Assembly: GCA_001000035.1 (NCBI GenBank)
Contig: LCGX01000001.1
Location: 1-26,566 of the forward strand
Direction of reading: 5' to 3'
Source: Candidatus Nomurabacteria bacterium GW2011_GWF2_43_8
Lineage (GTDB): Bacteria; Patescibacteriota; Minisyncoccia; Phycocordibacterales; UBA9973
DNA length: 26,566 bases
The notes beneath the pieces were generated by a model, which worked only from the letters and a program-made list of their open reading frames with translations, was not told the DNA's origin and did not search any database. A program made the translations under genes and the position numbers. Below are positions 6,894 to 21,106 of the stretch, in pieces; position 1 is the stretch's first letter, and each line of letters opens with the position of its first letter.

Positions 6894-7589
6894 ATGCCAA
6901 AATTTTACGTTGTAGCGACGCCAATCGGGAATATGGGAGACATTACGCTTCGAGCAATCGAGACGCTGAAGAGCGTTGACATGATATTGTGCGAAGATAC
7001 TCGAGAAACAAAAAAAATTTTGGATAAATATAATATCAATAAGCCGACGATGAGCTATCATGCGCAGAGTAAACTTTCAAAGACGGATAAAATTTTTGAG
7101 CTTTTAGAAGAAGGGAAAGATTTGGCGCTGGTTTCCGACGCCGGCACGCCCGGGATTTCCGACCCTGGTGCATTATTGGTTTCCAAAATAAAAGAGCATC
7201 TCAGCCATGGCGTAGATGTAATTCCGATACCGGGCCCTTCGGCTGTTATTACTGCGCTTTCGGCTTCAGGATTACCGATTCATGAATTCACTTTTTTGGG
7301 TTTTCTCCCGCATAAGAAAGGAAGGGAAACTTTATTTAAAGAAATTGCGCAAGCGAAAAGGACGATGGTTTTTTATGAATCTCCGCATCGGATTTTAAAA
7401 ACTTTGGAATCACTTGTGAAGTTTTGCCCGAACAAAAAAGTTTGTGTCGCTCGCGAGCTGACGAAAATTTATGAAGAGTTTAAAACTGGCACGCCTGAAG
7501 AAATTTTTGAATATTTTAAGCCCAAGGCTGACCAGCCTCTGGCTGGTAATAAAAAGATAAGAGGGGAATTTACGGTAATTGTCGCCTAG
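6894..7589 (+). CDS. rsmI: 16S rRNA C1402 2'-O-methyltransferase
   Basis: YVVATPIGNMGDITLRA; CEDTR; LVSDAGTPGISDPG; FYESPHR; RELTKIYEE. Confidence 0.96.
   Translation: MPKFYVVATPIGNMGDITLRAIETLKSVDMILCEDTRETKKILDKYNINKPTMSYHAQSKLSKTDKIFELLEEGKDLALVSDAGTPGISDPGALLVSKIKEHLSHGVDVIPIPGPSAVITALSASGLPIHEFTFLGFLPHKKGRETLFKEIAQAKRTMVFYESPHRILKTLESLVKFCPNKKVCVARELTKIYEEFKTGTPEEIFEYFKPKADQPLAGNKKIRGEFTVIVA
7520..7546. repeat. Short imperfect palindrome inside rsmI, in frame (PKADQPLAG)
   Basis: GCC-ca-AGGCT-gacc-AGCCT-ct-GGC, a GC-rich patch in AT-rich coding sequence just before the conserved RGEF motif. Confidence 0.55.
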
Positions 7590-7590
7590 A

Positions 7591-7646
7591 ACGAAGAAAG
7601 CCCGCCGGTGAAGCAAGGCTAAGGCCTTCTTCTGCCCGGTCGGGCT
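7591..7646 (-). terminator. Long GC-rich hairpin followed by a U-rich tract on the minus strand
   Basis: AGCCCG-CCGG..GAAG.AAGGC-taag-GCCTT-CTTC..CCGG.CGGGCT (7599-7646); minus strand continues TTTCTTCGTT; lies between convergent units. Confidence 0.65.
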
Positions 7647-7666
7647 GTCGTTGATGTGGGCTGCGG

Positions 7667-7735
7667 TTACGAGATGAACGGCTCTTTTTTGGGGTCGAGG
7701 CCCCCGGGGAGTTTATCCCCACTACCGGAACTCAT
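7667..7735 (-). CDS. Putative 22-aa micro-protein MSSGSGDKLPGGLDPKKEPFIS
   Basis: AAGGAGAG Shine-Dalgarno-like motif 5 nt before ATG; follows the 69-aa ORF and precedes the terminator hairpin. Confidence 0.3.
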   Translation of the reverse strand: MSSGSGDKLPGGLDPKKEPFIS

Positions 7736-7992: not shown

Positions 7993-9936
7993 TTACAACA
8001 AATCTTCCGGATCCACAAGGATTTCAAAATTAGACGGAAGATATAGGAGTTTGTCAAGTAGAATTTCATCGATAGACGAATTATGGGAAATTTCAGGCAG
8101 GGACCATTTTGAAGGATCAATTTTTAAAAGCGCGTTGGTCACGTATTTATTTTTCAATTGCGCTACAAATCCGCTGAAAATCTCCGGAGAATATTCCTTG
8201 AAAATTTCTTTCAGAGTTTCTTTGGCTTTTTTCGTCTGTTCTTTGTCCCCCAGGTATGTGATTTTTATAAAACGTTTGAAAGGCGGATAGCCGAATTTTT
8301 TCCTCTCTTCCAGCTCTCCGCGCACGAAAGGCAGGAAGTTCTCCGATTCAATAGCACGGATTACTTCATCTTTTTCATTCTTGGTTTGAATAATAAGTTT
8401 CTCCGATGTGTTGCCGATCATTGAAAACACGATTTGTATGATTTTTTCGCTCATTCTGAAATTCGGAATGCTCCAAAGCGAGTCAAAAGACGCGATGATG
8501 GACAGCGGTATTTTGTTTTTCAGATAAAAAAAAGCCATTTCCGTGCCGATTAATATCGAGCCCGGGTTTGATTCAAATTCTTTGATGATTTTTTGGGCGC
8601 CTCTGCCTGTTTTGGCCGATTCTTTATCCAATTTAAAAATTTTTATTTTTGGAAAAAGTTTCTTGGCTTCTTCCTGCACGGTGTCCGTACCGATGCCGAG
8701 AGGCACGAGATTCCAGCTCCCGCAAGAGGCGCAGGCGGTGTCTCCGCTTTTTTCTTCCCCGCACCGGTTGCAGACGAACATTCTTTTTTTGCCCCGATGG
8801 GACAAGTATAAAACCAGAGGAGTTCCGCATTTACCGCAACTTACCGTCTCGCCGCAATCCCGGCACAGAGTTTCCGTTGCCAGCCCCTTTCTCAGGGAAA
8901 AAATAAACACGCTCTTTTTGTCTTTCAGGGCCGATTTTATTCCTTCCGTGCTTTGACTTTTGAGTACCTGGAATTTTTTTCCGTCTTCTTTTTGCCCTTT
9001 ATTTGAAATTTCTATTTCACCCAAAAAATCGATTCTGAAAGACAGCGGGTAGAGGGGGTTGAGGTTTTCCATATCTTTTCTTCCGATTGTCTCAAAACGC
9101 AGCATTTCATCGGCTATTATGAGTTTGGCGTTTATTTTTGAAGCATAAATTTCCGTGAAAACTCTCAGGTCTAAATGAGGCCTTCTGATTGTTTTATAGG
9201 CGTTCGAGTTTTCATGTTCCAGAATTATAGTGCCTATATCTTTTTTAGGGATAGACAAAAACGGCGCGGTTCCCAAAATAAGAACCGGATGGGAAGAAGC
9301 CATTATTTTTTCATAGATCGCCAGGTTTTTTTGGGGGCTCATTCCGCTCGATACGGCAAAAACGAACTGTTCTATGCCTTTTGATAACTGTTCGGCGAAA
9401 TTATTTATGTCGATTTCGGTCGGCAGAACCATAAAAACCGACTTACCGCGGGCAAAAGATTCGCGGATTAGGGTTTTGTAGACGGATACGCGATCAGAGA
9501 ATGGATATTGGAACAGCAATTTTTCGGTTTTCAGGGAAGGGCGGTCCTTAAGAGAGTTTCCCCAAGGACCGTCCTTGGCAGAAATATTTTTTATCTTATC
9601 GTATTCTTCCAAAAAAATATTTGGAATCAGGGACGCAACTGCGTTGTTTTTATTTTGCGTAAAATATTTTCCGGTATCAAAAATCGTGTCCATAAATTCT
9701 TTCAAGAAAACGGAACTCCCTTTATTTTCCGTTACTTTTCTCAAACTGAAATCCATCCCCTTGACATTACTTTTTCTATCTTTCAGTTCCTCGGAAGATA
9801 CCACTAGGGCCAGGGTTTTTTTGCTTTTTATCGGGATAGAAACAATACTGCCCGGAGATATGTCAAGAACGGTAAAATAAGTGAGGTCGCCCTTCGGGAT
9901 GCCTTTTTTAAGCGGTATTACGGATATTATTTTCAT
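7993..9936 (-). CDS. priA: Primosomal protein N' with degenerate helicase motifs
   Basis: N-terminal 3'-binding-type domain; four CxxC pairs (CRDC, CGKC, CNRC, CASC) then LVPLGIGTDTVQEE; IPNFRMSE; FGYPPF. Confidence 0.88.
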   Translation of the reverse strand: MKIISVIPLKKGIPKGDLTYFTVLDISPGSIVSIPIKSKKTLALVVSSEELKDRKSNVKGMDFSLRKVTENKGSSVFLKEFMDTIFDTGKYFTQNKNNAVASLIPNIFLEEYDKIKNISAKDGPWGNSLKDRPSLKTEKLLFQYPFSDRVSVYKTLIRESFARGKSVFMVLPTEIDINNFAEQLSKGIEQFVFAVSSGMSPQKNLAIYEKIMASSHPVLILGTAPFLSIPKKDIGTIILEHENSNAYKTIRRPHLDLRVFTEIYASKINAKLIIADEMLRFETIGRKDMENLNPLYPLSFRIDFLGEIEISNKGQKEDGKKFQVLKSQSTEGIKSALKDKKSVFIFSLRKGLATETLCRDCGETVSCGKCGTPLVLYLSHRGKKRMFVCNRCGEEKSGDTACASCGSWNLVPLGIGTDTVQEEAKKLFPKIKIFKLDKESAKTGRGAQKIIKEFESNPGSILIGTEMAFFYLKNKIPLSIIASFDSLWSIPNFRMSEKIIQIVFSMIGNTSEKLIIQTKNEKDEVIRAIESENFLPFVRGELEERKKFGYPPFKRFIKITYLGDKEQTKKAKETLKEIFKEYSPEIFSGFVAQLKNKYVTNALLKIDPSKWSLPEISHNSSIDEILLDKLLYLPSNFEILVDPEDLL

Positions 9937-10998: not shown

Positions 10999-11714
10999 TG
11001 ATCGGAAAGCATTTAAATAAAGACAATCCCCACCACGCATATTTGATAGAAGGCGCGCGGGACGAGATTGTGCCGGAGATTTTGAAATTTTGCGAGGCCT
11101 TGGGCGTAAAGACCGTCGGCAATCCGGATTTTTACCATATCTCCATCAATAATTTTAAAATAGACGAAGCGTTTGACCTGCGTTCGATGTCTTCCGATAA
11201 AAGTTTTTCTTCGGCTAAAAAAATTTTCATCTTATGCGTGAACAGTTTTTCTTTGGATGCGCAGAATGTCTTACTCAAAATGTTTGAAGAACCGAGAGAG
11301 AACACTCATTTTTTTATGATTGTGCCGGATGTGAACGCCTTATTGAAAACTCTCGTTTCTAGATTCTACTTAATTAAGCCGGAGCCGGGAGTAAATAGAG
11401 AACATGAAGCCGCAAATAAATTTATCGCTATGCCCTTGCAAAATAGGATAGATTTCATTAAAGAATTGTTAGTAGAGCCGGAGGAGGAAGATGAAGAGGG
11501 TAATGAAATTGCCGTGCTTGATTCTACCCGCTCAAAAGCTTTAAAATTTCTAAATGCGCTGGAATCCACTCTTCATAAAAAGCTGATAAAAAATCCTTCG
11601 AGTTTTACTTTTTTTGATCACTTTTTCAAAGTTCGGGAGTTTCTCCGCATGCCCGGCTCTTCTACGAAAAACTTGATGGAATCCGTGGCATTAATTGTGC
11701 CGGAAATAAAATAG
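10998..11714 (+). CDS. holB: DNA polymerase III delta'-like protein (reduced)
   Basis: HHAYLIEG; NPDF; AQNVLLKMFEEP; LLKTLVSR (SRC-like motif). TAATG overlap with mreB. Confidence 0.7.
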   Translation: MIGKHLNKDNPHHAYLIEGARDEIVPEILKFCEALGVKTVGNPDFYHISINNFKIDEAFDLRSMSSDKSFSSAKKIFILCVNSFSLDAQNVLLKMFEEPRENTHFFMIVPDVNALLKTLVSRFYLIKPEPGVNREHEAANKFIAMPLQNRIDFIKELLVEPEEEDEEGNEIAVLDSTRSKALKFLNALESTLHKKLIKNPSSFTFFDHFFKVREFLRMPGSSTKNLMESVALIVPEIK

Positions 11715-11718
11715 TTTT

Positions 11719-13395
11719 ATGCAACAGGAAACCAAGGTTTGTCAAAATTGTAAAAAAGAATTCGTGATTGAACCGGACGATTTTGGATTTTATGAAAAAA
11801 TAGGGGTGCTTCCGCCCAAAATGTGTCCAGAATGTCGTATGCAGCTACGTCTTTGTTTTAAAAATGAAAGGCGTTTTTATAAACGCATTTGTGATAACTG
11901 CAAAAAGGACATTATCGCTATCTACAGCGCGAATAAGCCTTATCCTGTTTGGTGCTCTGAGTGCTGGTGGAGCAGCGATTTAGATCCGCAGAAATACGCT
12001 GTGGATTATAATCCCAACAAATCTTTTTATGAGCAATTTAATGAGGTTTGGATAAAAGCTCCCAAGCAGGCCCTGGCTGGGATGAGAAATGTAAATTGCT
12101 TTTACTTGAACAACACAGCCGATAATAAAAACTGCTATCTGATTATAGAGAGTTCTAATAATGAAAACTGCATACATTGCTATTGGATACAGCTCTCAAA
12201 AGATTTAGTTGACTGTTCTTTTACGAACAAAGTAGAACTTTCGTACGAAGTTGATGATTGTTACGACTGTAATTCTCTTAAATTTTCTAAAGGGTGCCAT
12301 AGCTGTCTCGATAGCTCTTTTCTACTCGATTGCCGAAATTGTCAGAATTGCCTAGGCTGCATAAATTTGCGCGGACAAAAGTATATTATTTTCAATAAAC
12401 AGTATTCCAAAGAAGAGTATGAAAATAAATTAAAATCCTTCAAATTAGATACGCACTCAGGTGTAGAATCTTTTAAAAAACAATTTCAAGACTTTATAAA
12501 AGACAAGCCGAGAAAGTTTGCCGAGATTACCAATGCCGTTAACTCTACGGGAAATTACATGACGAATGTCAAGAATAACAGATATTGCTTTCATTCTTAT
12601 GAAGCGGAAGACAACGCTTACTCTATCCATGTTTGGCGAGGAGCAAAAGACTGTATGGACTGCAACACCGCCGGAAGGGCTGCGGAATTAATATATAATT
12701 CGCTCAATACGGGCATCGAAGCATCGAATGTGACCTGTTCCCAATACTGCTGGAGTTCGCAATTTATGGAATACTGCCTGAATTGCCCAGATTCAAATCA
12801 TAGTTTTGGATGCGCCAGTTTGGTCAAGGGGTCCTATTTTATTTTAAACAAGCAATACACCAAAGAAGATTACAAAAAATTGCGCGCGGAGATTATTGCG
12901 AAAATGAAAAAGGAAGGTATTTACGGAGATTTTTTTCCGAAGGAATTGTCTCCGTTCGGATATAATGAGTCCTTGGTAATGGATGAGTTTCCGCTCACTA
13001 AAGAAGAAGCGCTAGCAGAGGGTTTCAAATGGGAAGACACACCACGCGGAACATATGGCAAAGAAACAGTAGATTGGAAAAAATTCCCTGATTCTATTTT
13101 AGACTTGTCGTCGGATTTTGATGTTGGAAAAGAAGTTTTTATCTGCATGGAATGTAAAAAAAATTATCGGATTATCGAAGACGAACTTTCTTTTTATCGG
13201 AGAATGCAAATACCAATTCCAAGAAATTGTCCCGAGTGCCGGCACGATAAGCGTGTTAAAAATAGGGGACCAAATAAACTTTGGCATCGGAAGTGCATGC
13301 GAGAAGGTTGTCAAAATGAATTTGAAACGCCCTACGCCGCAGAAAAACCGGAAATAATTTACTGCGACGAATGTTATAAACGGCTGGTTTATTAA
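11719..13395 (+). CDS. Cys-rich multi-CxxC hypothetical protein, paralogue 1
   Basis: 558 aa; CQNC, CPECR, CDNC, CSECW at N-terminus; Cys/Asn-rich core; CPECR, YCDECY at C-terminus. Confidence 0.9.
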   Translation: MQQETKVCQNCKKEFVIEPDDFGFYEKIGVLPPKMCPECRMQLRLCFKNERRFYKRICDNCKKDIIAIYSANKPYPVWCSECWWSSDLDPQKYAVDYNPNKSFYEQFNEVWIKAPKQALAGMRNVNCFYLNNTADNKNCYLIIESSNNENCIHCYWIQLSKDLVDCSFTNKVELSYEVDDCYDCNSLKFSKGCHSCLDSSFLLDCRNCQNCLGCINLRGQKYIIFNKQYSKEEYENKLKSFKLDTHSGVESFKKQFQDFIKDKPRKFAEITNAVNSTGNYMTNVKNNRYCFHSYEAEDNAYSIHVWRGAKDCMDCNTAGRAAELIYNSLNTGIEASNVTCSQYCWSSQFMEYCLNCPDSNHSFGCASLVKGSYFILNKQYTKEDYKKLRAEIIAKMKKEGIYGDFFPKELSPFGYNESLVMDEFPLTKEEALAEGFKWEDTPRGTYGKETVDWKKFPDSILDLSSDFDVGKEVFICMECKKNYRIIEDELSFYRRMQIPIPRNCPECRHDKRVKNRGPNKLWHRKCMREGCQNEFETPYAAEKPEIIYCDECYKRLVY

Positions 13396-13407
13396 GTTTT
13401 TTATCTA

Positions 13408-13416
13408 TGATATAGT
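13408..13416 (+). promoter_or_regulatory. Extended -10 for frr (leaderless-type)
   Basis: TG-a-TATAGT ending 6 nt before ATG 13423. Confidence 0.55.
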
Positions 13417-13422
13417 AGAGCC

Positions 13423-13974
13423 ATGCAATATAATTTTTCCAATTTTAAGGCGGAACTCAAAAGAGCGGAAGAATTTTTGGGCAAGGAATACAGCCAGCTC
13501 AATATCGGCCGAGCGTCGCCGATGGTCCTCGACGGCGTGTCGGTGGAGTCCTATGGCTCTTACGTTCCGCTGAAAAATGTAGCTTCCGTGTCCATCGAAG
13601 ACCCGAAGACCTTGCGTGTTTCGCCCTGGGACAAGAGCCAGATCAAGGGCGTGGAAAAAGCGATTGCCGGCGCCAATTTAGGCCTTTCGGTGGTGGTAGA
13701 TGATTCAGGCATCCGGGTTATTTTTCCACAACTGACGACCGAAACCAGGCAGACCTTGGTAAAAGTTTTGAAGGAAAAATTGGAAGAGCAGAGAATTACC
13801 GTGCGCAAGGAGCGCGAGCGCGTCTGGGACGACGTCCAGGCAAAAGAAAAAGAAGGAAAGATCACCGAAGATGAAAAATTCCGGGCTAAGGAAGAACTGC
13901 AAAAAATCATCGACGAAGCGAATAGAAACCTGGAAGCGCATTTTACCCGCAAAGAGAAAGAAGTGATGGGATAA
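13423..13974 (+). CDS. frr: Ribosome recycling factor
   Basis: IGRASPMVLDGVSVESYG; SPWDKSQIKGVEKAI; FPQLTTETR; 183 aa. Confidence 0.96.
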   Translation: MQYNFSNFKAELKRAEEFLGKEYSQLNIGRASPMVLDGVSVESYGSYVPLKNVASVSIEDPKTLRVSPWDKSQIKGVEKAIAGANLGLSVVVDDSGIRVIFPQLTTETRQTLVKVLKEKLEEQRITVRKERERVWDDVQAKEKEGKITEDEKFRAKEELQKIIDEANRNLEAHFTRKEKEVMG

Positions 13975-13980
13975 ACCAAT

Positions 13981-15081
13981 ATGAGTATAATTATTTTTTT
14001 AATCATTTTATTAGTCCTTGTCTTAGTCCACGAGTTCGGACATTTTTTTACCGCCAAAAGGTTCGGCATCAGGGTGGATGAATTCGGCTTCGGCTTTCCA
14101 CCGAAATTATTCGGCTGGAAAAAAGGGGAAACGGAATATTCTGTTAACGCCTTGCCGTTCGGAGGATTTGTCAAAATTTTTGGAGAGAATCCCGACGAAG
14201 AAAATACGAGCGGTCCCGACGCAGGCAGAAGTTTTGTAAACAAGCCGAAATGGCAGCAGGCCATGGTGCTTTTTGCCGGGGTCTTCGCCAATTTTCTACT
14301 GGCCTGGCTTTTGTTTTCCGCGGGCTTCATATCTGGGCTTCCAACCTCCGCCGACAGCAAGCTTGCTAGCTACAACCTGGAGGATGTAAACTTGGTCGTC
14401 ATTTCCATTCTTAAAAATTCTCCGGCAGAGAATGCCGGGCTGCAGGTCGGGGATAAAATTGTCAGTTTGAAGAATAACAGCGATTTCACGTCCGAGATTA
14501 ATCCGGAAAAAGTAAAATCTTTTGTTTTAGAAAGCAGAGACAAAGAAATTGAAATCGGCTATTTACGCAGCCGAGACACAGAGATCAAGTTTGTGAAAGC
14601 GGTACCCGCGGTAAATGAAGTGACCGGCAGCCCGGAAATCGGCATATCGATGGATATGATCGGCACGGCTAAATTGCCCTTTTTTACGGCTTTGTATGAA
14701 GGAATGAAGCTCAACCTAAATGTCACTAAAAACACCGCTATTGGGCTTTTTACACTTATTTACGAGGGTATTTTAGGCAGGGGCAGTTTGGAAGGGATTG
14801 CCGGGCCGGTCGGCATAGTGGGTATCGTAGGGGATGCCTACCAGTTTGGTTTCGTTTACCTCCTTTCTTTTGCTGCTTTGATTTCCATAAATTTGGCGAT
14901 TATAAACTTATTTCCGTTTCCGGCGCTCGATGGCGGACGGCTTTTGTTCCTGCTGATCGAAAAAATCAAGGGCTCGCGCATAAACTTGAAATTTGCCAAC
15001 GCGGCCAACATGGTCGGTTTTTCCCTTCTGATACTTCTGATGCTCATCGTCACTTACCACGACATAATTAAATTGTTTTAA
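13981..15081 (+). CDS. rseP: RseP/RasP-type site-2 metalloprotease (M50, PDZ)
   Basis: HEFGH (HExxH); LPFGGFVKI; SPAENAGLQVGD PDZ; NLFPFPALDGG. Confidence 0.94.
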   Translation: MSIIIFLIILLVLVLVHEFGHFFTAKRFGIRVDEFGFGFPPKLFGWKKGETEYSVNALPFGGFVKIFGENPDEENTSGPDAGRSFVNKPKWQQAMVLFAGVFANFLLAWLLFSAGFISGLPTSADSKLASYNLEDVNLVVISILKNSPAENAGLQVGDKIVSLKNNSDFTSEINPEKVKSFVLESRDKEIEIGYLRSRDTEIKFVKAVPAVNEVTGSPEIGISMDMIGTAKLPFFTALYEGMKLNLNVTKNTAIGLFTLIYEGILGRGSLEGIAGPVGIVGIVGDAYQFGFVYLLSFAALISINLAIINLFPFPALDGGRLLFLLIEKIKGSRINLKFANAANMVGFSLLILLMLIVTYHDIIKLF

Positions 15082-16841
15082 TGAATAAACAAGACGAAAG
15101 CCGAACATGCCAAAACTGCAAGAAAGATTTCACGATAGAAACCGAAGATTTTAATTTTTACGAAAAAATGAAGGTACCGGCTCCGACCTGGTGCCCGGAG
15201 TGTCGCCTACAAAGGCGCTTAACCTTTCGCAATGAACGAACTTTATATAAACGTTCGTGCCAATTGTGCGGGGCTGATACACTTTCCAGATTTGACCCGG
15301 ATAAAAAAATAGTGAATTATTGCGGCGAATGCTGGTGGAGCGACCGCTGGGACCCAAAAAATTACGGGCAGGACTATGATTTTTCCCGTCCTTTTTTCGC
15401 GCAGTTCAAAGAACTGTTGAGAAAAGTGCCCCAATACAACTTGATAACCCTGCACAACACTCTCATCAATACCGATTTTACGAATATGAATCACTACCTG
15501 AAAAACTGCTATTACATTTTCAATTCGGACTACAACGAAAGGTGTTTCTACGGGGAGGAAATTGAGCACTGTTCGGATTGCGTGGATGTAACTATGTTTG
15601 AAAGCTCGGAATTGGCTTATGAGAGTTTAAATTGCGTCAAATGCTACCAAATTTATTATTCGGTTGATTGCGAAAGCTCGCACGACATTTGGTTTTCCAA
15701 GAACCTGGCGGGTTGTTCGCATTGTTTTGGTTGTGTAAACTTGCGCAGCCAGCAATATTGCATTTTTAACGAAAAGTACAGCCGGGAGGAATATCTGAAA
15801 AAACTGGAAGAGTTTGAACTGGGCTCGCATCAGGCCGTACAAAAGATTAAAGAAAAAGCCGGAAATTTTTGGTTGGAATTTCCGAATAAATATATGCACG
15901 GGGTCCAGAACGTAGGTTCCGATGGCGACTACATTTATAACTCCCGATATGTAAAAAATTCTTTCATCGTGCAAGGCGGGGAATATTGCAAATACTGTAT
16001 GTGGCTGATCGTAAAAAATAATAAAGATTGCTATGACTACACGCAATTTGGTGAGAACAACGAACTTGTCTATGAATCCTTATGTTGTGGAAAAAACACT
16101 TACGATATTATCGGTAGCATTAATGCCATTGAAGGAAGAAATATACGATATGCGACATATTGCTACAACAACATCAGTAATCTTTTTGGTTGTGTCAGTA
16201 TGAATAACCATAGTTACTGCATTTTAAACAAACAATACAGCAAGGAAGAATATGAAGAAATGGTGCCCAAAATCATAAAACACATGAACGATGTACCTTA
16301 TGTTGATAAAAAAGGGCGCACTTATGTTTATGGCGATTTTTTCCCGACCGAGACTGCCCAATTCGACTATAACGAAACATCGGCGCAGGAATTTTTTCCT
16401 TTAACAAAAGAAGAAGTGGAAGAGCAGGGTTTTTCCTGGAAAGAACCGAGAGACAGGAATTATAAAATAAGCATAGAATCAAAAGATTTGCCGGATGACA
16501 TCAAAGATGTGCCGGAGAATATCGCCTCGGAGATAATAGGTTGCGCGCATGCGGGAGAATGCAAGGAACAATGCACGACGGCTTTTCGGATAACGGAATT
16601 TGAATTTAAGTTTTACAAGCTTCACAAATTGCCGCTTCCGCGCCTATGCCCAAATTGCCGGCACTACCAACGGGTACTAAAGAGAAATCCGAACAAGTTT
16701 TGGGATCGGGAATGCATGTGTGATAAGAAAAATCATTCTCATGGAGAAGAAAAATGCAATATTCCGTTTAAAACTTCTTATTCTCCCGATCGACCGGAGA
16801 TTGTGTATTGCGAGAAATGTTACCATCAGGAGGTTTACTAG
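15081..16841 (+). CDS. Cys-rich multi-CxxC hypothetical protein, paralogue 2
   Basis: 586 aa; same motifs as paralogue 1; TAATG overlap with rseP. Confidence 0.9.
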   Translation: MNKQDESRTCQNCKKDFTIETEDFNFYEKMKVPAPTWCPECRLQRRLTFRNERTLYKRSCQLCGADTLSRFDPDKKIVNYCGECWWSDRWDPKNYGQDYDFSRPFFAQFKELLRKVPQYNLITLHNTLINTDFTNMNHYLKNCYYIFNSDYNERCFYGEEIEHCSDCVDVTMFESSELAYESLNCVKCYQIYYSVDCESSHDIWFSKNLAGCSHCFGCVNLRSQQYCIFNEKYSREEYLKKLEEFELGSHQAVQKIKEKAGNFWLEFPNKYMHGVQNVGSDGDYIYNSRYVKNSFIVQGGEYCKYCMWLIVKNNKDCYDYTQFGENNELVYESLCCGKNTYDIIGSINAIEGRNIRYATYCYNNISNLFGCVSMNNHSYCILNKQYSKEEYEEMVPKIIKHMNDVPYVDKKGRTYVYGDFFPTETAQFDYNETSAQEFFPLTKEEVEEQGFSWKEPRDRNYKISIESKDLPDDIKDVPENIASEIIGCAHAGECKEQCTTAFRITEFEFKFYKLHKLPLPRLCPNCRHYQRVLKRNPNKFWDRECMCDKKNHSHGEEKCNIPFKTSYSPDRPEIVYCEKCYHQEVY

Positions 16842-16902
16842 CTCGTGGATAGTTTACTAAAATAACATACCAACAAACTGGAGTTTGTAAGGATGAAAAA
16901 TT

Positions 16903-18609
16903 ATGCAAAGCGAAACAAAAAACTGCCAGAATTGTAAAAAAGATTTCATTATTGAGCCTGATGATTTTGGGTTCTACGAAAAAATCAAAGTCCCTCCACC
17001 GACTTTTTGCCCAGAGTGCCGGCTTGTTCGTCGTCTTGCAAGCACCAACGAACGTGTGTTGTATAAAAGAAAATGTGACTTTTCCGGAGATGAAATTTTT
17101 TCTATGTATCCGGCGGATGCGCCTTTCCCGGTTTATAATACTGACGATTGGTACTCGGATAAGTGGGATTCATATCAATACGGGATGGATTATGATTTCT
17201 CACGACCGTTTTTTGAGCAGTTCCAAGAACTTTTAAATAAAGTTCCCAAAATGGCTCTTGTCCGGCAAGGACTTTCCGTAAATAGTCCTTATGTGCATCG
17301 TGTGACAAATCCTAAAAATTCGTACATGGTTTTCAGGGCGACCGACCCAATTGATTCTTTTTATTCGTATATTGTGGAAGGGTTAAAAGATTCGAGCGAT
17401 TGTGTTTGGTCCAATAAAATGGAATTATGTTATGAATGCATTAATTGCGAGAATTGCTACAATCTTCGTTTTTCTCAAGAGAGTGTAAACTGCCGGGATT
17501 CCTCTTTCCTTTATGCTTGCAGAAATTGTTCTAATTGTATGGGTTGTGTGAACCTTGTGAATAAGGAATTCTATATTTGGAATGAACATTATTCCAGGGA
17601 AGAATATTTCAAAAAGCTGGAGGAGTTGAAATTAGATAGTTTTTCCGGAATAGAAAAAATGGAAAAAGAATTTCAGGTATTCAGGAAAAAGTTTCCTCAA
17701 AAAGCGGTTAATTCCATAAAATCAGAACAGATTTCCGGTAACGGGTTTTCTAATTGCAAAAACGTACATCAGTCTTTTGATTGTATAAATGTTCGCGACG
17801 GGAAATTCCTCTTTTCGATTTTTGATACGCAGGATAGTATGGACTATTTTGAGTGGGGGAATAAATCGGAATTGATATATGAATCTGAAAATTGTGGAAT
17901 CAATACTTCCAGAATTTCATTCTCCACCCAGTGCTGGACCGGTGCCCATGATCTTAAATATTGCGATTCTTGCCCAGGATCGAGTAATTGTTTCGGTTGT
18001 ATCGGCCTGAAGAAAGGAGAGTATTCGGTGCTGAATAAAAAATATAACAAAGAGGAATATGAAAGTCTGGTACTTAAAATTATTAAACAGATGAAAGAGA
18101 TTCCCTATATGGATAAAAGGGGAGTTCAATATAGGTTTGGCGAACATTTTCCAGATGAGCTTTCTGTGTTCGGCTATAATGAAACTGCCGCTTTTGATTT
18201 TTTTCCACTAACCAAAGAAGAGGCAATAAAAAGAGGATATAAATGGAGGAATAGAGAAAAGAAAAATTATAAAACAACTGTTGTAAGTAAGGACCTTCCT
18301 GAAACCATCAATGAAGTTAATGATTCGATATTAAAGGAAGTAATTGAGTGTGGGGAAAAGAATAGTCCCTTTTCCACGGGTGCATACCGTATTGCTCCCA
18401 ATGAATTAGCTTTTTATCGAAAGATGAATTTGCCCCTTCCGCGAGTTTGCTTTGATGTCAGGCATATGCGTCGTATTTTCAAACATCCCCCTTTTAAATT
18501 ACTAAAACGAAATTGCGCGAAGTGTGGCGCAGAAACAGAAACAGTTTATCCAGAAGACTACGCGCCGATAATTTTTTGCGAGGATTGCTATAAACAGGAA
18601 GTTTACTAG
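16903..18609 (+). CDS. Cys-rich multi-CxxC hypothetical protein, paralogue 3
   Basis: 568 aa; same architecture with several CxxC pairs degenerate. Confidence 0.9.
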   Translation: MQSETKNCQNCKKDFIIEPDDFGFYEKIKVPPPTFCPECRLVRRLASTNERVLYKRKCDFSGDEIFSMYPADAPFPVYNTDDWYSDKWDSYQYGMDYDFSRPFFEQFQELLNKVPKMALVRQGLSVNSPYVHRVTNPKNSYMVFRATDPIDSFYSYIVEGLKDSSDCVWSNKMELCYECINCENCYNLRFSQESVNCRDSSFLYACRNCSNCMGCVNLVNKEFYIWNEHYSREEYFKKLEELKLDSFSGIEKMEKEFQVFRKKFPQKAVNSIKSEQISGNGFSNCKNVHQSFDCINVRDGKFLFSIFDTQDSMDYFEWGNKSELIYESENCGINTSRISFSTQCWTGAHDLKYCDSCPGSSNCFGCIGLKKGEYSVLNKKYNKEEYESLVLKIIKQMKEIPYMDKRGVQYRFGEHFPDELSVFGYNETAAFDFFPLTKEEAIKRGYKWRNREKKNYKTTVVSKDLPETINEVNDSILKEVIECGEKNSPFSTGAYRIAPNELAFYRKMNLPLPRVCFDVRHMRRIFKHPPFKLLKRNCAKCGAETETVYPEDYAPIIFCEDCYKQEVY

Positions 18610-18709: not shown

Positions 18710-21106
18710 GTGTCAAAAACCATTTTTCGCAAAAATATAGAGAAAAAGTTCAAAATCGCCCTCCTGACCGGCGGGCCGTCCCTAGAGCGCGGAATATCCT
18801 TAAATTCGGCTAGGTCCGCTTTGGATCATCTAGGGAGCGACAACGTGGAGATTGTTCCCGTTTATTTTGACCAAAAGAAAAAGGCTTATCAGATTTCCAT
18901 CGATCAGCTTTACTCGAACAATCCTTCGGATTTTGATTTTAAACTAGCCGAGCATTCATCTTCTTTGAGCCCCAAAAAGTTGGTGGAACTTCTGCGGTCG
19001 GTTGATATTGTTTTCCCCGCCATGCACGGGCCGTTCGGCGAAGACGGGCAAGTACAGGCATTTCTGGAAAAAAATAAAATTCCTTTCGTTGGATCGGGCA
19101 GCCGGGCCTGCAAAAAGGCCTTCGATAAATACGAAGCGAATAAAATTATCAGTCAAAAAGGTTTTTTTACCCTACCGGACGCTCTGCTTAAAATTTATTC
19201 GAAAGACAATACAAGGATAATAGAGAATTTTTTCAGGAAACATAAGATAAAAAGGGCCATTGTCAAACCGGCAACCGGCGGTTCCAGCATTGGAACTTTT
19301 TCCGTATCCAGTATTGCCGAAACCCTGGAAAAAGCAAACCTGATATTCAGGAAGAGAATGGATACGCGGGTGGTGCTGGAGCCCTTCGCCCGAGGGCGGG
19401 AATTCACCGTCATTGTCCTGCAAAATAGTTTCGGCCTGCCGGTCGCTCTCATACCTTCGGAGATTGAGATGGCCTACCACGAAGGCAGGATTTTTGATTT
19501 CCGAAAAAAATACCTGCCGACCAACCAGGTCAAATACCATTGCCCGCCGAAATTCGAAATGGAAACAATCGAAAAGATAAGAACGGAGGCAGCGCAGATT
19601 TTTTCTCTTTTTGGCCTGAATGACTTCGCGCGCTTCGACGGATGGGTCTTCCCGGACGGGAAAATCTGGTTTTCCGATTTCAATACGGTCTCCGGCATGG
19701 AGCAGAACAGCTTCCTTTTCCAGCAATCCTCTCGCCTCGGCATGAGCCATAGTGATCTTCTCCATTACGTCGCCAAAAATTCGTGTGCCAGGCAGAAAAT
19801 TGATTTTCCTCGGCCGGAGAAAAGCGGCAAAGAAGGAAAAAGAAAGCCCGTTTCGGTCATATTCGGCGGGCAGACCTCCGAGAGGCAGGTATCGCTTATG
19901 AGCGGAACGAATGTCTGGCTCAAACTGTGGAAGTCAAAAATTTACGAGCCCGTTCCGTATTTGCTTGACCCGGAAAACAATGTCTGGAAGCTCCCTTACG
20001 CTCTTATTTTAAACCACACAGTCGAAGAAATAACAGAAAACGCTGAAAATGCCGCCAAAGAAGAGGGAAAAAACGAGAGTTTGATTGGTCGCGTCAAGGA
20101 GGAGCTCAAACTATCCGAAGAAGAGGCGACGGAGCCTTTTTTCCTGCCGGAGAAGATGTCCTTCGGGGAATTTGCCAGGCGGTCAAAATTTGTTTTCCTG
20201 GGGCTCCACGGCGGAGACGGAGAGAACGGTAATTTTCAGAAACTTTTGGCAAAATCGGGGGTGAGGTTCAACGGCTCCGACGAGAGCGTTTCCCGCCTTT
20301 GCATGGACAAATTTAATACGGGCGAATTTATCAGAAGTTTAAATATAAAAAATTTAGGAATTTCTAGTCAGAAAATCATCAACCTTTCTGTCTTTGAGAA
20401 ATTGGATTTTAATGTTTTTTGGAAGAATTTATGCAGGGAATTTAATTCAAAAACTTTGATTGTAAAGCCGCGTTCTGACGGATGTTCAACAGGCGTTGCT
20501 CATTTATACAATTCAGATGATTTAAAGAATTACGTGCATTATTTAAAAAACGGAGAAGCATTTATTCCGGCCAATGTTCTTTCCAATCATGGAATAGTGG
20601 AGTTACCGCACGAAAAAACTCATGAAGTTTTATTTGAAAAATTTATTGAGACCGATCCTGTGCATGTCAAAGGGAATAAACTAAAATATACGAGGAAAAG
20701 TGGCTGGGTGGAGATTACTATCGGCCTGCTTGAAGAAAATGGAAAAATGCGCGCTTTTAATCCAAGCATCACCATTGCCGAGGGTGAAGTGCTTTCAGTG
20801 GAAGAAAAATTTCAAGGGGGGACTGGAATCAATCTTACTCCTCCACCAAAAGAAATAGTTAAACAAAAAGCGGTTTTAAAAACTCGTAAGTTAGTGGAAA
20901 AATTAGTTACAAAAATTGGCATAAAAGATTATGCGCGGATTGACGCATTTATGAATGTAACTATTGGAGCGCTTATTGCGATAGAGGTTAACACTTTGCC
21001 GGCCCTTACTCCTTCCACGGTGTTTTACCATCAGGCGCTGGCGGAGAATCCAAAAATTTTTCCGCTCCAGCTGCTCGAGAAAATAATCAAAAACAGCGGG
21101 TACTGA
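18710..21106 (+). CDS. ddl: Tandem two-domain D-alanine--D-alanine ligase
   Basis: Two Ddl modules: GGPSLERGIS..HGPFGEDG..KPATGGSSIG..RFDG..DFNTVSG and GGQTSERQVS..HGGDGENG..KPRSDGCSTG..RIDA..EVNTLPA. Confidence 0.93.
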   Translation: MSKTIFRKNIEKKFKIALLTGGPSLERGISLNSARSALDHLGSDNVEIVPVYFDQKKKAYQISIDQLYSNNPSDFDFKLAEHSSSLSPKKLVELLRSVDIVFPAMHGPFGEDGQVQAFLEKNKIPFVGSGSRACKKAFDKYEANKIISQKGFFTLPDALLKIYSKDNTRIIENFFRKHKIKRAIVKPATGGSSIGTFSVSSIAETLEKANLIFRKRMDTRVVLEPFARGREFTVIVLQNSFGLPVALIPSEIEMAYHEGRIFDFRKKYLPTNQVKYHCPPKFEMETIEKIRTEAAQIFSLFGLNDFARFDGWVFPDGKIWFSDFNTVSGMEQNSFLFQQSSRLGMSHSDLLHYVAKNSCARQKIDFPRPEKSGKEGKRKPVSVIFGGQTSERQVSLMSGTNVWLKLWKSKIYEPVPYLLDPENNVWKLPYALILNHTVEEITENAENAAKEEGKNESLIGRVKEELKLSEEEATEPFFLPEKMSFGEFARRSKFVFLGLHGGDGENGNFQKLLAKSGVRFNGSDESVSRLCMDKFNTGEFIRSLNIKNLGISSQKIINLSVFEKLDFNVFWKNLCREFNSKTLIVKPRSDGCSTGVAHLYNSDDLKNYVHYLKNGEAFIPANVLSNHGIVELPHEKTHEVLFEKFIETDPVHVKGNKLKYTRKSGWVEITIGLLEENGKMRAFNPSITIAEGEVLSVEEKFQGGTGINLTPPPKEIVKQKAVLKTRKLVEKLVTKIGIKDYARIDAFMNVTIGALIAIEVNTLPALTPSTVFYHQALAENPKIFPLQLLEKIIKNSGY

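Follow-up and report, generated by a model that had tools for sequence, protein, structure and literature searches.

Small proteins built around a treble-clef-like zinc finger are among the closest described systems to the genes considered here. The finger is captured by the models zf_Tbcl (PF13451), zf_Tbcl_2 (PF23477) and TIGR04272, a CxxC-x17-CxxC 'probable treble clef', and the only experimental datum for the group is that small archaeal proteins with a zf_Tbcl-type domain, from Methanosarcina mazei (e.g. A00184 and A01980), bind zinc by inductively coupled plasma mass spectrometry (PMC12704099). Fingers with similar CxxC...CxxC, F/Y and P..C..CR signatures terminate three large Cys-rich proteins, P1, P2 and P3, encoded in a 26,566-nucleotide stretch of Candidatus Nomurabacteria bacterium GW2011_GWF2_43_8 (contig LCGX01000001.1, positions 1 to 26,566; the window). 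They belong to an undescribed family of soluble Paceibacteria proteins: literature searches returned the M. mazei small-protein paper alone, and none that describes the family. The three genes are:

11719-13395, plus strand: P1, family member of 558 aa, intact open reading frame (ORF), 4 nt 3' of holB and 27 nt 5' of frr
15081-16841, plus strand: P2, family member of 586 aa, intact ORF, its ATG overlapping the rseP stop (TAATG)
16903-18609, plus strand: P3, family member of 568 aa, intact ORF, fingers 2 and 3 degenerate

P1, P2 and P3 are 40-44% identical in pairs and share an N-terminal motif, CQNCKKxFxIExxDFxFYEK..P..CPECR, and a C-terminal motif, ...YCExCY..EVY. Composition is marked by Cys (4.4-6.9%), Asn (5.7-9.0%) and Ser (5.9-9.7%). 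No transmembrane segment or signal-like N-terminus is present in P1-P3, the Kyte-Doolittle maximum over all 19-residue windows being 1.21, as for proteins of a soluble, cytoplasmic type. Four nucleotides separate the holB stop codon TAG (11712-11714) from the P1 ATG, the rseP stop TAA shares bases with the P2 ATG, and P3 begins 61 nt after P2 with an AAGGA box in front of it. A preliminary description of this DNA had reported the three intact paralogues with their common N-terminus and Cys-containing C-terminus, the two tight junctions with holB and rseP, and the lack of export or membrane signals; the sequence bears out each of these. A scan for promoters and terminators around P1-P3 gave no signal clearly above shuffled sequence.

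The observation is thus confirmed, and it was understated; the interpretation attached to it is partly supported. Three paralogues is the right number for the window, but the host genome (G000; 658 kb in 56 contigs, 78.6% complete) carries 19 family loci, of which 16 are intact ORFs (556-593 aa); of the other three, a contig end truncates one, a 15-N scaffold gap interrupts another and the last is frameshifted. They span ∼32.5 kb, or 4.9% of the assembly, and the paralogues are 27-57% identical (median 42%). The statement that similar proteins recur as hypotheticals in Patescibacteria was sound: a profile built from P1-P3 retrieves 4739 clusters at the 50% identity level (E <= 0.001) among 1.84 billion representatives, more than 6900 clusters at 90% identity match the family, and all named matches are labelled 'hypothetical' and come from Paceibacteria, Nomurabacteria or Parcubacteria. 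A mixed-bin artefact behind the high copy number is rejected for at least 16 copies, the family-bearing contigs holding core genes 66-89% identical to those of the congener G284. The exception is contig C14, with three copies and pur genes, whose median identity to G284 is 34%. This contig may be accessory DNA or the DNA of another organism in the bin; the middle copy of its family array (15050-16721) is broken by one frameshift near 15620.

The family members are organised as [zf_Tbcl + zf_Tbcl_2] - solenoid B - solenoid B' - acidic segment - [zf_Tbcl + zf_Tbcl_2]. In P1 the parts are:

11740-11835, plus strand: zinc finger 1 (C8, C11, C36, C39), zf_Tbcl type; 22.7 bits to PF13451, under the 24-bit cut-off
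11890-11964, plus strand: zinc finger 2 (C58, C61, C79, C82), zf_Tbcl_2 type; facultative in the family
12073-12438, plus strand: solenoid B, residues 119-240; 12-residue coils, Cys/Ser ladder, end cap FGCxNL...NKQYSKEEY
12505-12915, plus strand: solenoid B', residues 263-399; internal duplicate of B
12916-13053, plus strand: acidic segment, residues 400-445; GDFFP..SPF.YNE....FPLTKEEA...G..W
13144-13239, plus strand: zinc finger 3 (C476, C479, C504, C507), zf_Tbcl type; facultative; PF13451 match at 13135-13260
13294-13374, plus strand: zinc finger 4 and conserved C-terminus (C526, C531, C549, C552), zf_Tbcl_2 type

Sub-profiles taken from a 104-sequence alignment and compared with hhalign show that the N-terminal and C-terminal finger pairs are homologous (A against A', 99.8%, E 8e-29), as are the two halves of the core (B against B', 99.9%, E 4.5e-36). 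Finger 1 corresponds to finger 3 (zf_Tbcl type, 99.5%) and finger 2 to finger 4 (zf_Tbcl_2 type, 97.7%). All Cys of fingers 1 and 4 are invariant in the 16 intact paralogues, and across 271 members the full CCCC set is kept 254 times in finger 1 and 260 times in finger 4. The inner fingers, both missing from P3, are more variable: finger 2 is complete (CCCC) in 189 members, keeps only its first Cys (C...) in 52 and has none (....) in 27, and finger 3 reads CCCC in 226 of the 271 and mostly C... in the remainder. Fingers 2 and 3 are therefore either complete or short of three to four Cys together, as expected for Cys4 zinc sites, and the two CxxC knuckles, 17-24 residues apart, are kept or lost jointly, a feature looked for in zf_Tbcl-type fingers. 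Judged from sequence, zinc binding is plausible at the four terminal Cys4 fingers only.

Matches to the finger profiles straddle the cut-offs. P2 finger 1 scores 24.4 bits against the PF13451 cut-off of 24 and other host copies reach 29.7-36.2 bits against a cut-off of 27, so that four copies in all, P2 finger 1 included, lie above the cut-offs; P1 (22.7 and 16.4 bits) and P3 (19.3 and 16.7 bits) lie under them. Among 104 C-terminal halves, PF23477 matches 42 and PF13451 matches 16 at E <= 0.01. In a six-frame Pfam search of the genome both finger models match only the family copies, a VirD4-like ATPase described below (ATPase1, 55.7 bits) and one 61-aa ORF. This ORF, on the minus strand of contig C19 (5262-5447), is a stand-alone zf_Tbcl protein with 47 bits to PF13451; its contig has a phage-like look and no ORF of >= 80 aa that matches G284, and a search for fused forms of the 61-aa protein found none.

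The core follows another rule. Its columns are 27-90% Cys, with Ser as the commonest substitute and then Val, Ile, Leu or Ala, and the Cys frequency has autocorrelation peaks at lag 3 (0.69) and lag 12 (0.65). A zinc ladder in the core is rejected: i/i+3 Cys pairs lack co-variation (phi -0.15 to 0.42) and all-or-none tetrads are absent. Core Cys swap freely with Ser, Val and Ile and are therefore not conserved metal sites; from their pattern in the alignment they are read as an inward-facing ladder within a very narrow solenoid rather than as ligands of metal. Of the multi-metal (Zn or Fe-S) character proposed in the preliminary description, zinc at the terminal Cys4 fingers stands as plausible, and the Cys-rich core drops out.

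These cysteines also bear on the idea that the proteins are a thiol or zinc buffer, or a redox-switch chaperone like Hsp33, in which the many Cys and the Zn(Cys)4 centres would detect or soak up oxidants or metals and pass clients to DnaK/DnaJ. A Cys total that stays high (22-47 per protein, median 38) while single positions vary is compatible with such a role, as are the four Cys4 sites per protein and the linkage of the family to all three Hsp70-system genes; the replacement of core Cys by Ser, Val, Ile and Leu, with the spacing of a structural ladder, speaks against it. Neither Hsp33 nor metallothionein is matched, bulk buffering needs no 19 diverged and individually conserved paralogues, and 4-7% Cys is far under the metallothionein level. 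A metallothionein-like store would be small, with 20-30% Cys in conserved clusters, and these proteins have 556-593 aa, 4.4-6.9% Cys and variable core Cys. Complementary loss of other chaperones is likewise rejected, relatives keeping a small heat-shock protein (five of the five genomes compared) and a ClpB-type gene (all four complete genomes) whether the family is present or not. A buffering or redox-switch role is improbable on this evidence.

The AlphaFold2 (AF2) model of P1 is confident, with a predicted local distance difference test score (pLDDT) of 88.4, rising to 94-97 in the acidic segment, and a predicted template modelling score (pTM) of 0.90. Compared with the PDB, the full model matches nothing significantly (Foldseek E >= 0.1, VIA best Z 3.5). 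The weak VIA rows are curli CsgA, left-handed beta-helices and antifreeze helices (Z <= 3.5), and the only fold matches of the solenoid are weak ones to beta-solenoids. Folded alone, the C-terminal half (pLDDT 92.8) retrieves only generic treble-clef fingers (Foldseek E >= 0.12, VIA best Z 2.9), and BFVD returns only small phage 'putative zinc-ribbon' proteins that each match one finger. The preliminary description held that a full-length match to a characterised family would count against a new system; Pfam, NCBIfam, PDB and Foldseek yield none, and sequence searches of Pfam, NCBIfam, PADLOC and the PDB return only sub-threshold finger or LIM matches. In PHROGs, solenoid B (window 11995-12369, P1 residues 93-217) weakly matches the phage family phrog_15341 (E 8e-5; P3, E 0.0037). 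The confident model suggests a fold class absent from the PDB, a 12-residue Cys/Ser-ladder solenoid with double treble-clef finger caps.

Conservation is concentrated at the two ends of the protein: the 16 paralogues average 0.60 pairwise identity in fingers 1 and 4 and 0.27-0.29 in the solenoid coils. The reading favoured here, tentative and at rather less than an even chance, is that the family consists of accessory adaptor or scaffold proteins whose zinc-finger ends are constant and whose solenoid bodies vary. The invariant end fingers would be constant docking heads for a ligand common to all paralogues, either nucleic acid or the conserved machinery of an ancestral locus (the dnaK/dnaJ/grpE system and a finger-bearing VirD4/HerA-like ATPase), and the solenoid faces, which diverge fast, would provide recognition specific to each paralogue. 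Such proteins would serve as adaptors or scaffolds and not as a metal store, and the genes in the window would be relocated copies that depend on core operons to be expressed. The scaffold, nucleic-acid binder, metal store and redox sensor named in the preliminary description are guesses.

Several observations weigh against the adaptor reading. The ends may be better conserved simply because zinc sites impose structural constraints, and the fold searches with Foldseek, VIA and BFVD give no functional pointer. Overall pI is near neutral (5.8-8.3), and the charge of the finger modules, only mildly basic at +2 and +5, is low for proteins that bind nucleic acid. The ATPases, with their finger and tail motifs, persist unchanged in congeners that lost every family member; the ATPase is then independent of the family, and the linkage between the two could be historical.

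Nucleic acid as the ligand is also the basis of a separate explanation, in which the proteins are bivalent RNA or DNA binders that bridge or measure, independent of any chaperone or ATPase locus: finger pairs would grip two segments and rigid solenoids would space them. Conserved Arg/Asn-rich helices do come after the second CxxC of fingers 1 and 3, and the conserved non-Cys residues on the finger helices are R40, R44, N49, R508, R512 and R524. The same finger is carried by an ATPase of the FtsK/HerA/VirD4 type, whose members act mostly in moving DNA, and one relative carries the automatic label 'Zn ribbon nucleic-acid-binding protein'. The net charge is nevertheless near neutral and a conserved segment is strongly acidic: in P1, G403, F405, P407, S411, Y415, N416, P425, G435 and W438 are near-invariant and residues 400-470 have a net charge of -9. 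The closest structural matches of the fingers, all weak, are protein-binding fingers (PHD, HPV E6/E7, A20). Family copies adjoin rsmE, hpf, cca, frr and fmt, but in a 0.7-Mb genome such neighbours are to be expected, translation genes being common there. Bivalent nucleic-acid binding is possible but on the unlikely side.

In its genomic setting the family is linked to the Hsp70 chaperone genes and to soluble VirD4/HerA-like ATPases. Nine of the 19 host copies lie in the grpE-dnaK-dnaJ locus, which is split over three contigs in the host and compares with the congener G284 as follows (FAM, gene of the Cys-rich zinc-finger/solenoid family; (-), minus strand):

Host, contig part 1: rpsI-grpE-FAM-FAM
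Host, contig part 2: FAM-paaX-like(-)-dnaK-104 aa-ATPase1-FAM-FAM-rsmE(-)-FAM-FAM
Host, contig part 3: ATPase2-dnaJ-FAM-FAM-199 aa
G284: grpE-paaX-dnaK-ATPase1-ATPase2-dnaJ-199 aa, with every FAM and rsmE missing

The array form with FAM genes recurs in a distant genome, where the P1 and P3 orthologues are neighbours within the array, and the dnaK locus is the ancestral home of the family. The preliminary description had suggested counting paralogues and comparing neighbourhoods. Of 79 loci from other species, 52 have at least two copies within 10 kb; 23 have a VirD4-like ATPase inside the same distance, no more than 1.3 kb from a family gene in 22 of them; and 18 have dnaK, dnaJ or grpE inside 10 kb.

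The soluble ATPase1 belongs to the TrwB/VirD4/HerA type of P-loop proteins and carries a zf_Tbcl_2 finger at residues 450-484. It has no membrane anchor, its ATPase domain starting at residue 32, and it matches the mad8/HerA profiles of PADLOC. In the host (contig C24, ∼7150-7720) the gene is frameshifted just past the zinc finger, either by a sequencing error or by a real truncation to 560 aa (orthologues have 669-866 aa); the conserved tail (LGIEF..., ...LKEVLNK..., ...NEVPEDVLRKILE) can be read without interruption in the +1 frame, up to a point immediately ahead of the next family gene. Co-loss of the finger-bearing ATPase, or of its finger, with the family was expected and is not seen: G284 and G256 retain it, 82-88% identical, with the finger and the tail motifs. 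A complex prediction pairing the ATPase1-adjacent paralogue of GCA_013565735.1 with the finger-plus-tail part of its ATPase1 gave a score of 0.00, which is evidence for neither side.

Across 12 loci, a family gene lies directly 3' of ATPase1 in nine, with a gap of 1-66 nt in eight and 363 nt in the ninth, and its subfamily varies. This arrangement, the strongly conserved extreme C-terminus (...CY..EVY), which could be an invariant recognition signal, and the multi-copy, diversified form typical of effectors would agree with a role as cargo of the VirD4-like ATPases, the paralogues being diversified substrates or effectors for export to a host cell. ATPase1, however, has no membrane anchor, no secretion channel is seen adjoining it, and genomes that lack the family still have the ATPases. 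Rigid proteins locked by zinc make poor substrates for export, and the orthologues evolve at the pace of housekeeping genes, unlike arms-race effectors. Export as cargo is, all told, very improbable.

The same linkage can be given a more specific form of the adaptor reading, in which the family would be the variable, paralogue-specific adaptor arm of a Paceibacteria-specific cytoplasmic machine whose components are Hsp70 (DnaK/DnaJ/GrpE) and soluble, hexameric VirD4/HerA-type ATPases that bear the finger. The machine, or its nucleic-acid substrate, would be the docking site of the constant finger heads, and up to ∼35 solenoid bodies per genome would select cargo. So specific a proposal is speculative and, as it stands, unlikely. 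If true, it would represent a new kind of protein- or nucleic-acid-handling system, discarded wholesale by some lineages.

Distribution shows that the family is conserved where present, yet dispensable and lost repeatedly. It occurs in 40/301 genomes of a same-class sample and 21/401 of a same-phylum sample; carriage ranges from 10/10 genomes in some taxonomic families to 0/12 in others, and candidate loci per genome range from 2 to ∼35. G284 (100% complete, 7 contigs) has no family member anywhere in its genome, a third congener, G591, has none either, and the series of copy numbers within the one genus is 0, 1 and at least 19. Phylogenetic profiling of the host against G284 is too noisy, 322 of the 682 host ORFs of >= 80 aa having no counterpart that covers 40% of their length. 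Purine-synthesis genes and rsmE are among the unmatched ORFs, and the difference in gene content is unusually large for one genus. An intact 567-aa member with 45 Cys lies on a 1.87-Mb contig labelled Bdellovibrionota (JAXLVP010000002.1; locus L111, 9950-11653), the gene having 51% GC and its surroundings 55-60% GC; the family may reach beyond Patescibacteria, or this copy may have been transferred.

The duplications behind P1-P3 are old. P1 has orthologues of 76-80% identity in several genomes, in the same holB-frr slot of related Nomurabacteria, and one of 65% in GCA_013565735.1; P2 has orthologues of up to 78%, one of them 3' of rseP in GCA_000995945.1; and the P3 orthologue, 66% identical, adjoins the P1 orthologue in the dnaK-ATPase array of the distant genome GCA_013565735.1. 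Between P1 and its 76% orthologue, the proportions of nonsynonymous and synonymous differences (pN and pS) are 0.134 and 0.80, compared with 0.160 and 0.80 for holB and 0.136 and 0.91 for frr. Separate orthologues and a P1 pN/pS in the range of holB and frr indicate that the duplications are old and that the copies are under purifying selection. The preliminary description had called these old duplications kept intact, and the paralogue identity of 40-44%, the orthologue identity of 65-80% and the P1 values (pN 0.13, pS 0.80) agree with it.

The positions of the window genes are less stable than their sequences. The gene orders at this locus are:

Host genome: holB-P1-frr-rseP-P2-P3-ddl
Nomurabacteria metagenome-assembled genome (MAG; AtpD 89%): holB-P1-x-frr-rseP-map-ddl
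GCA_000995945.1: holB-frr-rseP-P2-ddl
Congener G256: holB-frr-rseP-[other paralogue]-ddl
Congener G284 (AtpD 91%, MreB 95%; 100% complete, 7 contigs): holB-frr-rseP-ddl

In G256 the gene after rseP is a 65% orthologue of the host copy at C49:2105-3853 and not of P2. Family positions are thus a mosaic among otherwise collinear close relatives, and P1-P3 look like relocated copies. Other host copies occupy comparable slots: secY-adk-FAM-map, purB-FAM-ftsI, hpf-FAM, cca / FAM and purL-FAM-FAM-FAM-purQ. That the genes are woven into core operons, offered in the preliminary description as a lead to their function, does not serve as one, the same slots being empty in congeners and the ancestral home being the dnaK locus.

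The wider interest of the family lies in its cost and its loss. Streamlined symbiont genomes (0.6-1.4 Mb) are expected to shed surplus, and here ∼5% of the DNA is spent on one unstudied family. The paralogues are conserved as tightly as housekeeping genes, yet G284 has deleted all of them cleanly and kept the surroundings. Copy numbers of 0, 1 and at least 19 in a single genus amount to a natural knockout series and a direct handle on the role of the family. Its recurrent association with the Hsp70 locus and with orphan VirD4-like ATPases also bears on the question of those ATPases in bacteria of the Candidate Phyla Radiation (CPR).

The remainder of the window is a core-type neighbourhood. 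Upstream of P1 lie the atp operon, rsmI, a 647-aa gene without a name, mreB and holB; from P1 onward the order is P1, frr, rseP, P2, P3, a double ddl, nudix, miaA, murA and parB. The 647-aa protein (7993-9936, minus strand), between rsmI and mreB, has no Pfam or PADLOC match and is kept in the same slot in congeners (69% and 50% identity). The double ddl (18710-21106) is a 798-aa ORF that fuses two complete D-Ala-D-Ala ligase modules; the related Nomurabacteria MAG has the fusion too (785 aa), and the G284 ddl at the same position is only 27% identical.

Among known systems, the narrow Cys-rich beta-helix of the Tenebrio molitor antifreeze protein (TmAFP, PDB 1ezg) resembles the solenoid in its 12-residue coils, its regular inward Cys and its paucity of regular DSSP strand. 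TmAFP, however, is secreted and disulfide-bonded and has a TCT ice-binding face, whereas the family has no signal peptide and Ser, Val or Ile can take the place of its Cys. The structural match, a weak one, is not significant (VIA Z 2.5, root-mean-square deviation 8.3 A), and an insect-type antifreeze beta-helix is rejected: the 12-residue period is there, secretion and fixed disulfide Cys are not. Left-handed beta-helix acyltransferases and gamma-carbonic anhydrases (LpxA/LpxD/GlmU, PDB 3c8v) are likewise solenoids and supply the best Foldseek and VIA rows for the core. Hexapeptide-repeat enzymes are rejected all the same, with no Hexapep match at E <= 1, a period of 3/12 and not 18, E >= 0.1, template modelling (TM) score <= 0.12 and Z <= 3.4.

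A LIM domain has two contiguous fingers with eight ligands (C-x2-C-x16-23-H-x2-C-x2-C-x2-C-x16-21-C-x2-C/H/D). The C-terminal half of P1 scores 25.9 bits to PF00412 (cut-off 22.9), but only over residues 509-555, which is one finger, and C507 of finger 3 and C526 of finger 4 are 18 residues apart, not 2. A known anti-phage defence protein is rejected too, P1-P3 having no PADLOC match at E <= 0.01. Hsp33, a Zn-Cys4 redox holdase that works with DnaK/DnaJ/GrpE, is like the family in its cytoplasmic Zn(Cys)4 centres and its Hsp70-system neighbourhood; it differs in having no sequence or fold similarity, and the family has four fingers plus a solenoid and many paralogues. Adaptors with a constant dock and variable repeats, such as J-domain and F-box proteins, share the conservation pattern and the many paralogues with this family, which is linked to Hsp70 genes; the likeness is an analogy only, the family having no J domain or F-box. 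From the zf_Tbcl-type proteins of M. mazei the family differs in scale and build: those are single-domain proteins of less than 100 aa, whereas in the family two tandem finger pairs cap a 370-residue duplicated solenoid for which Pfam has no model.

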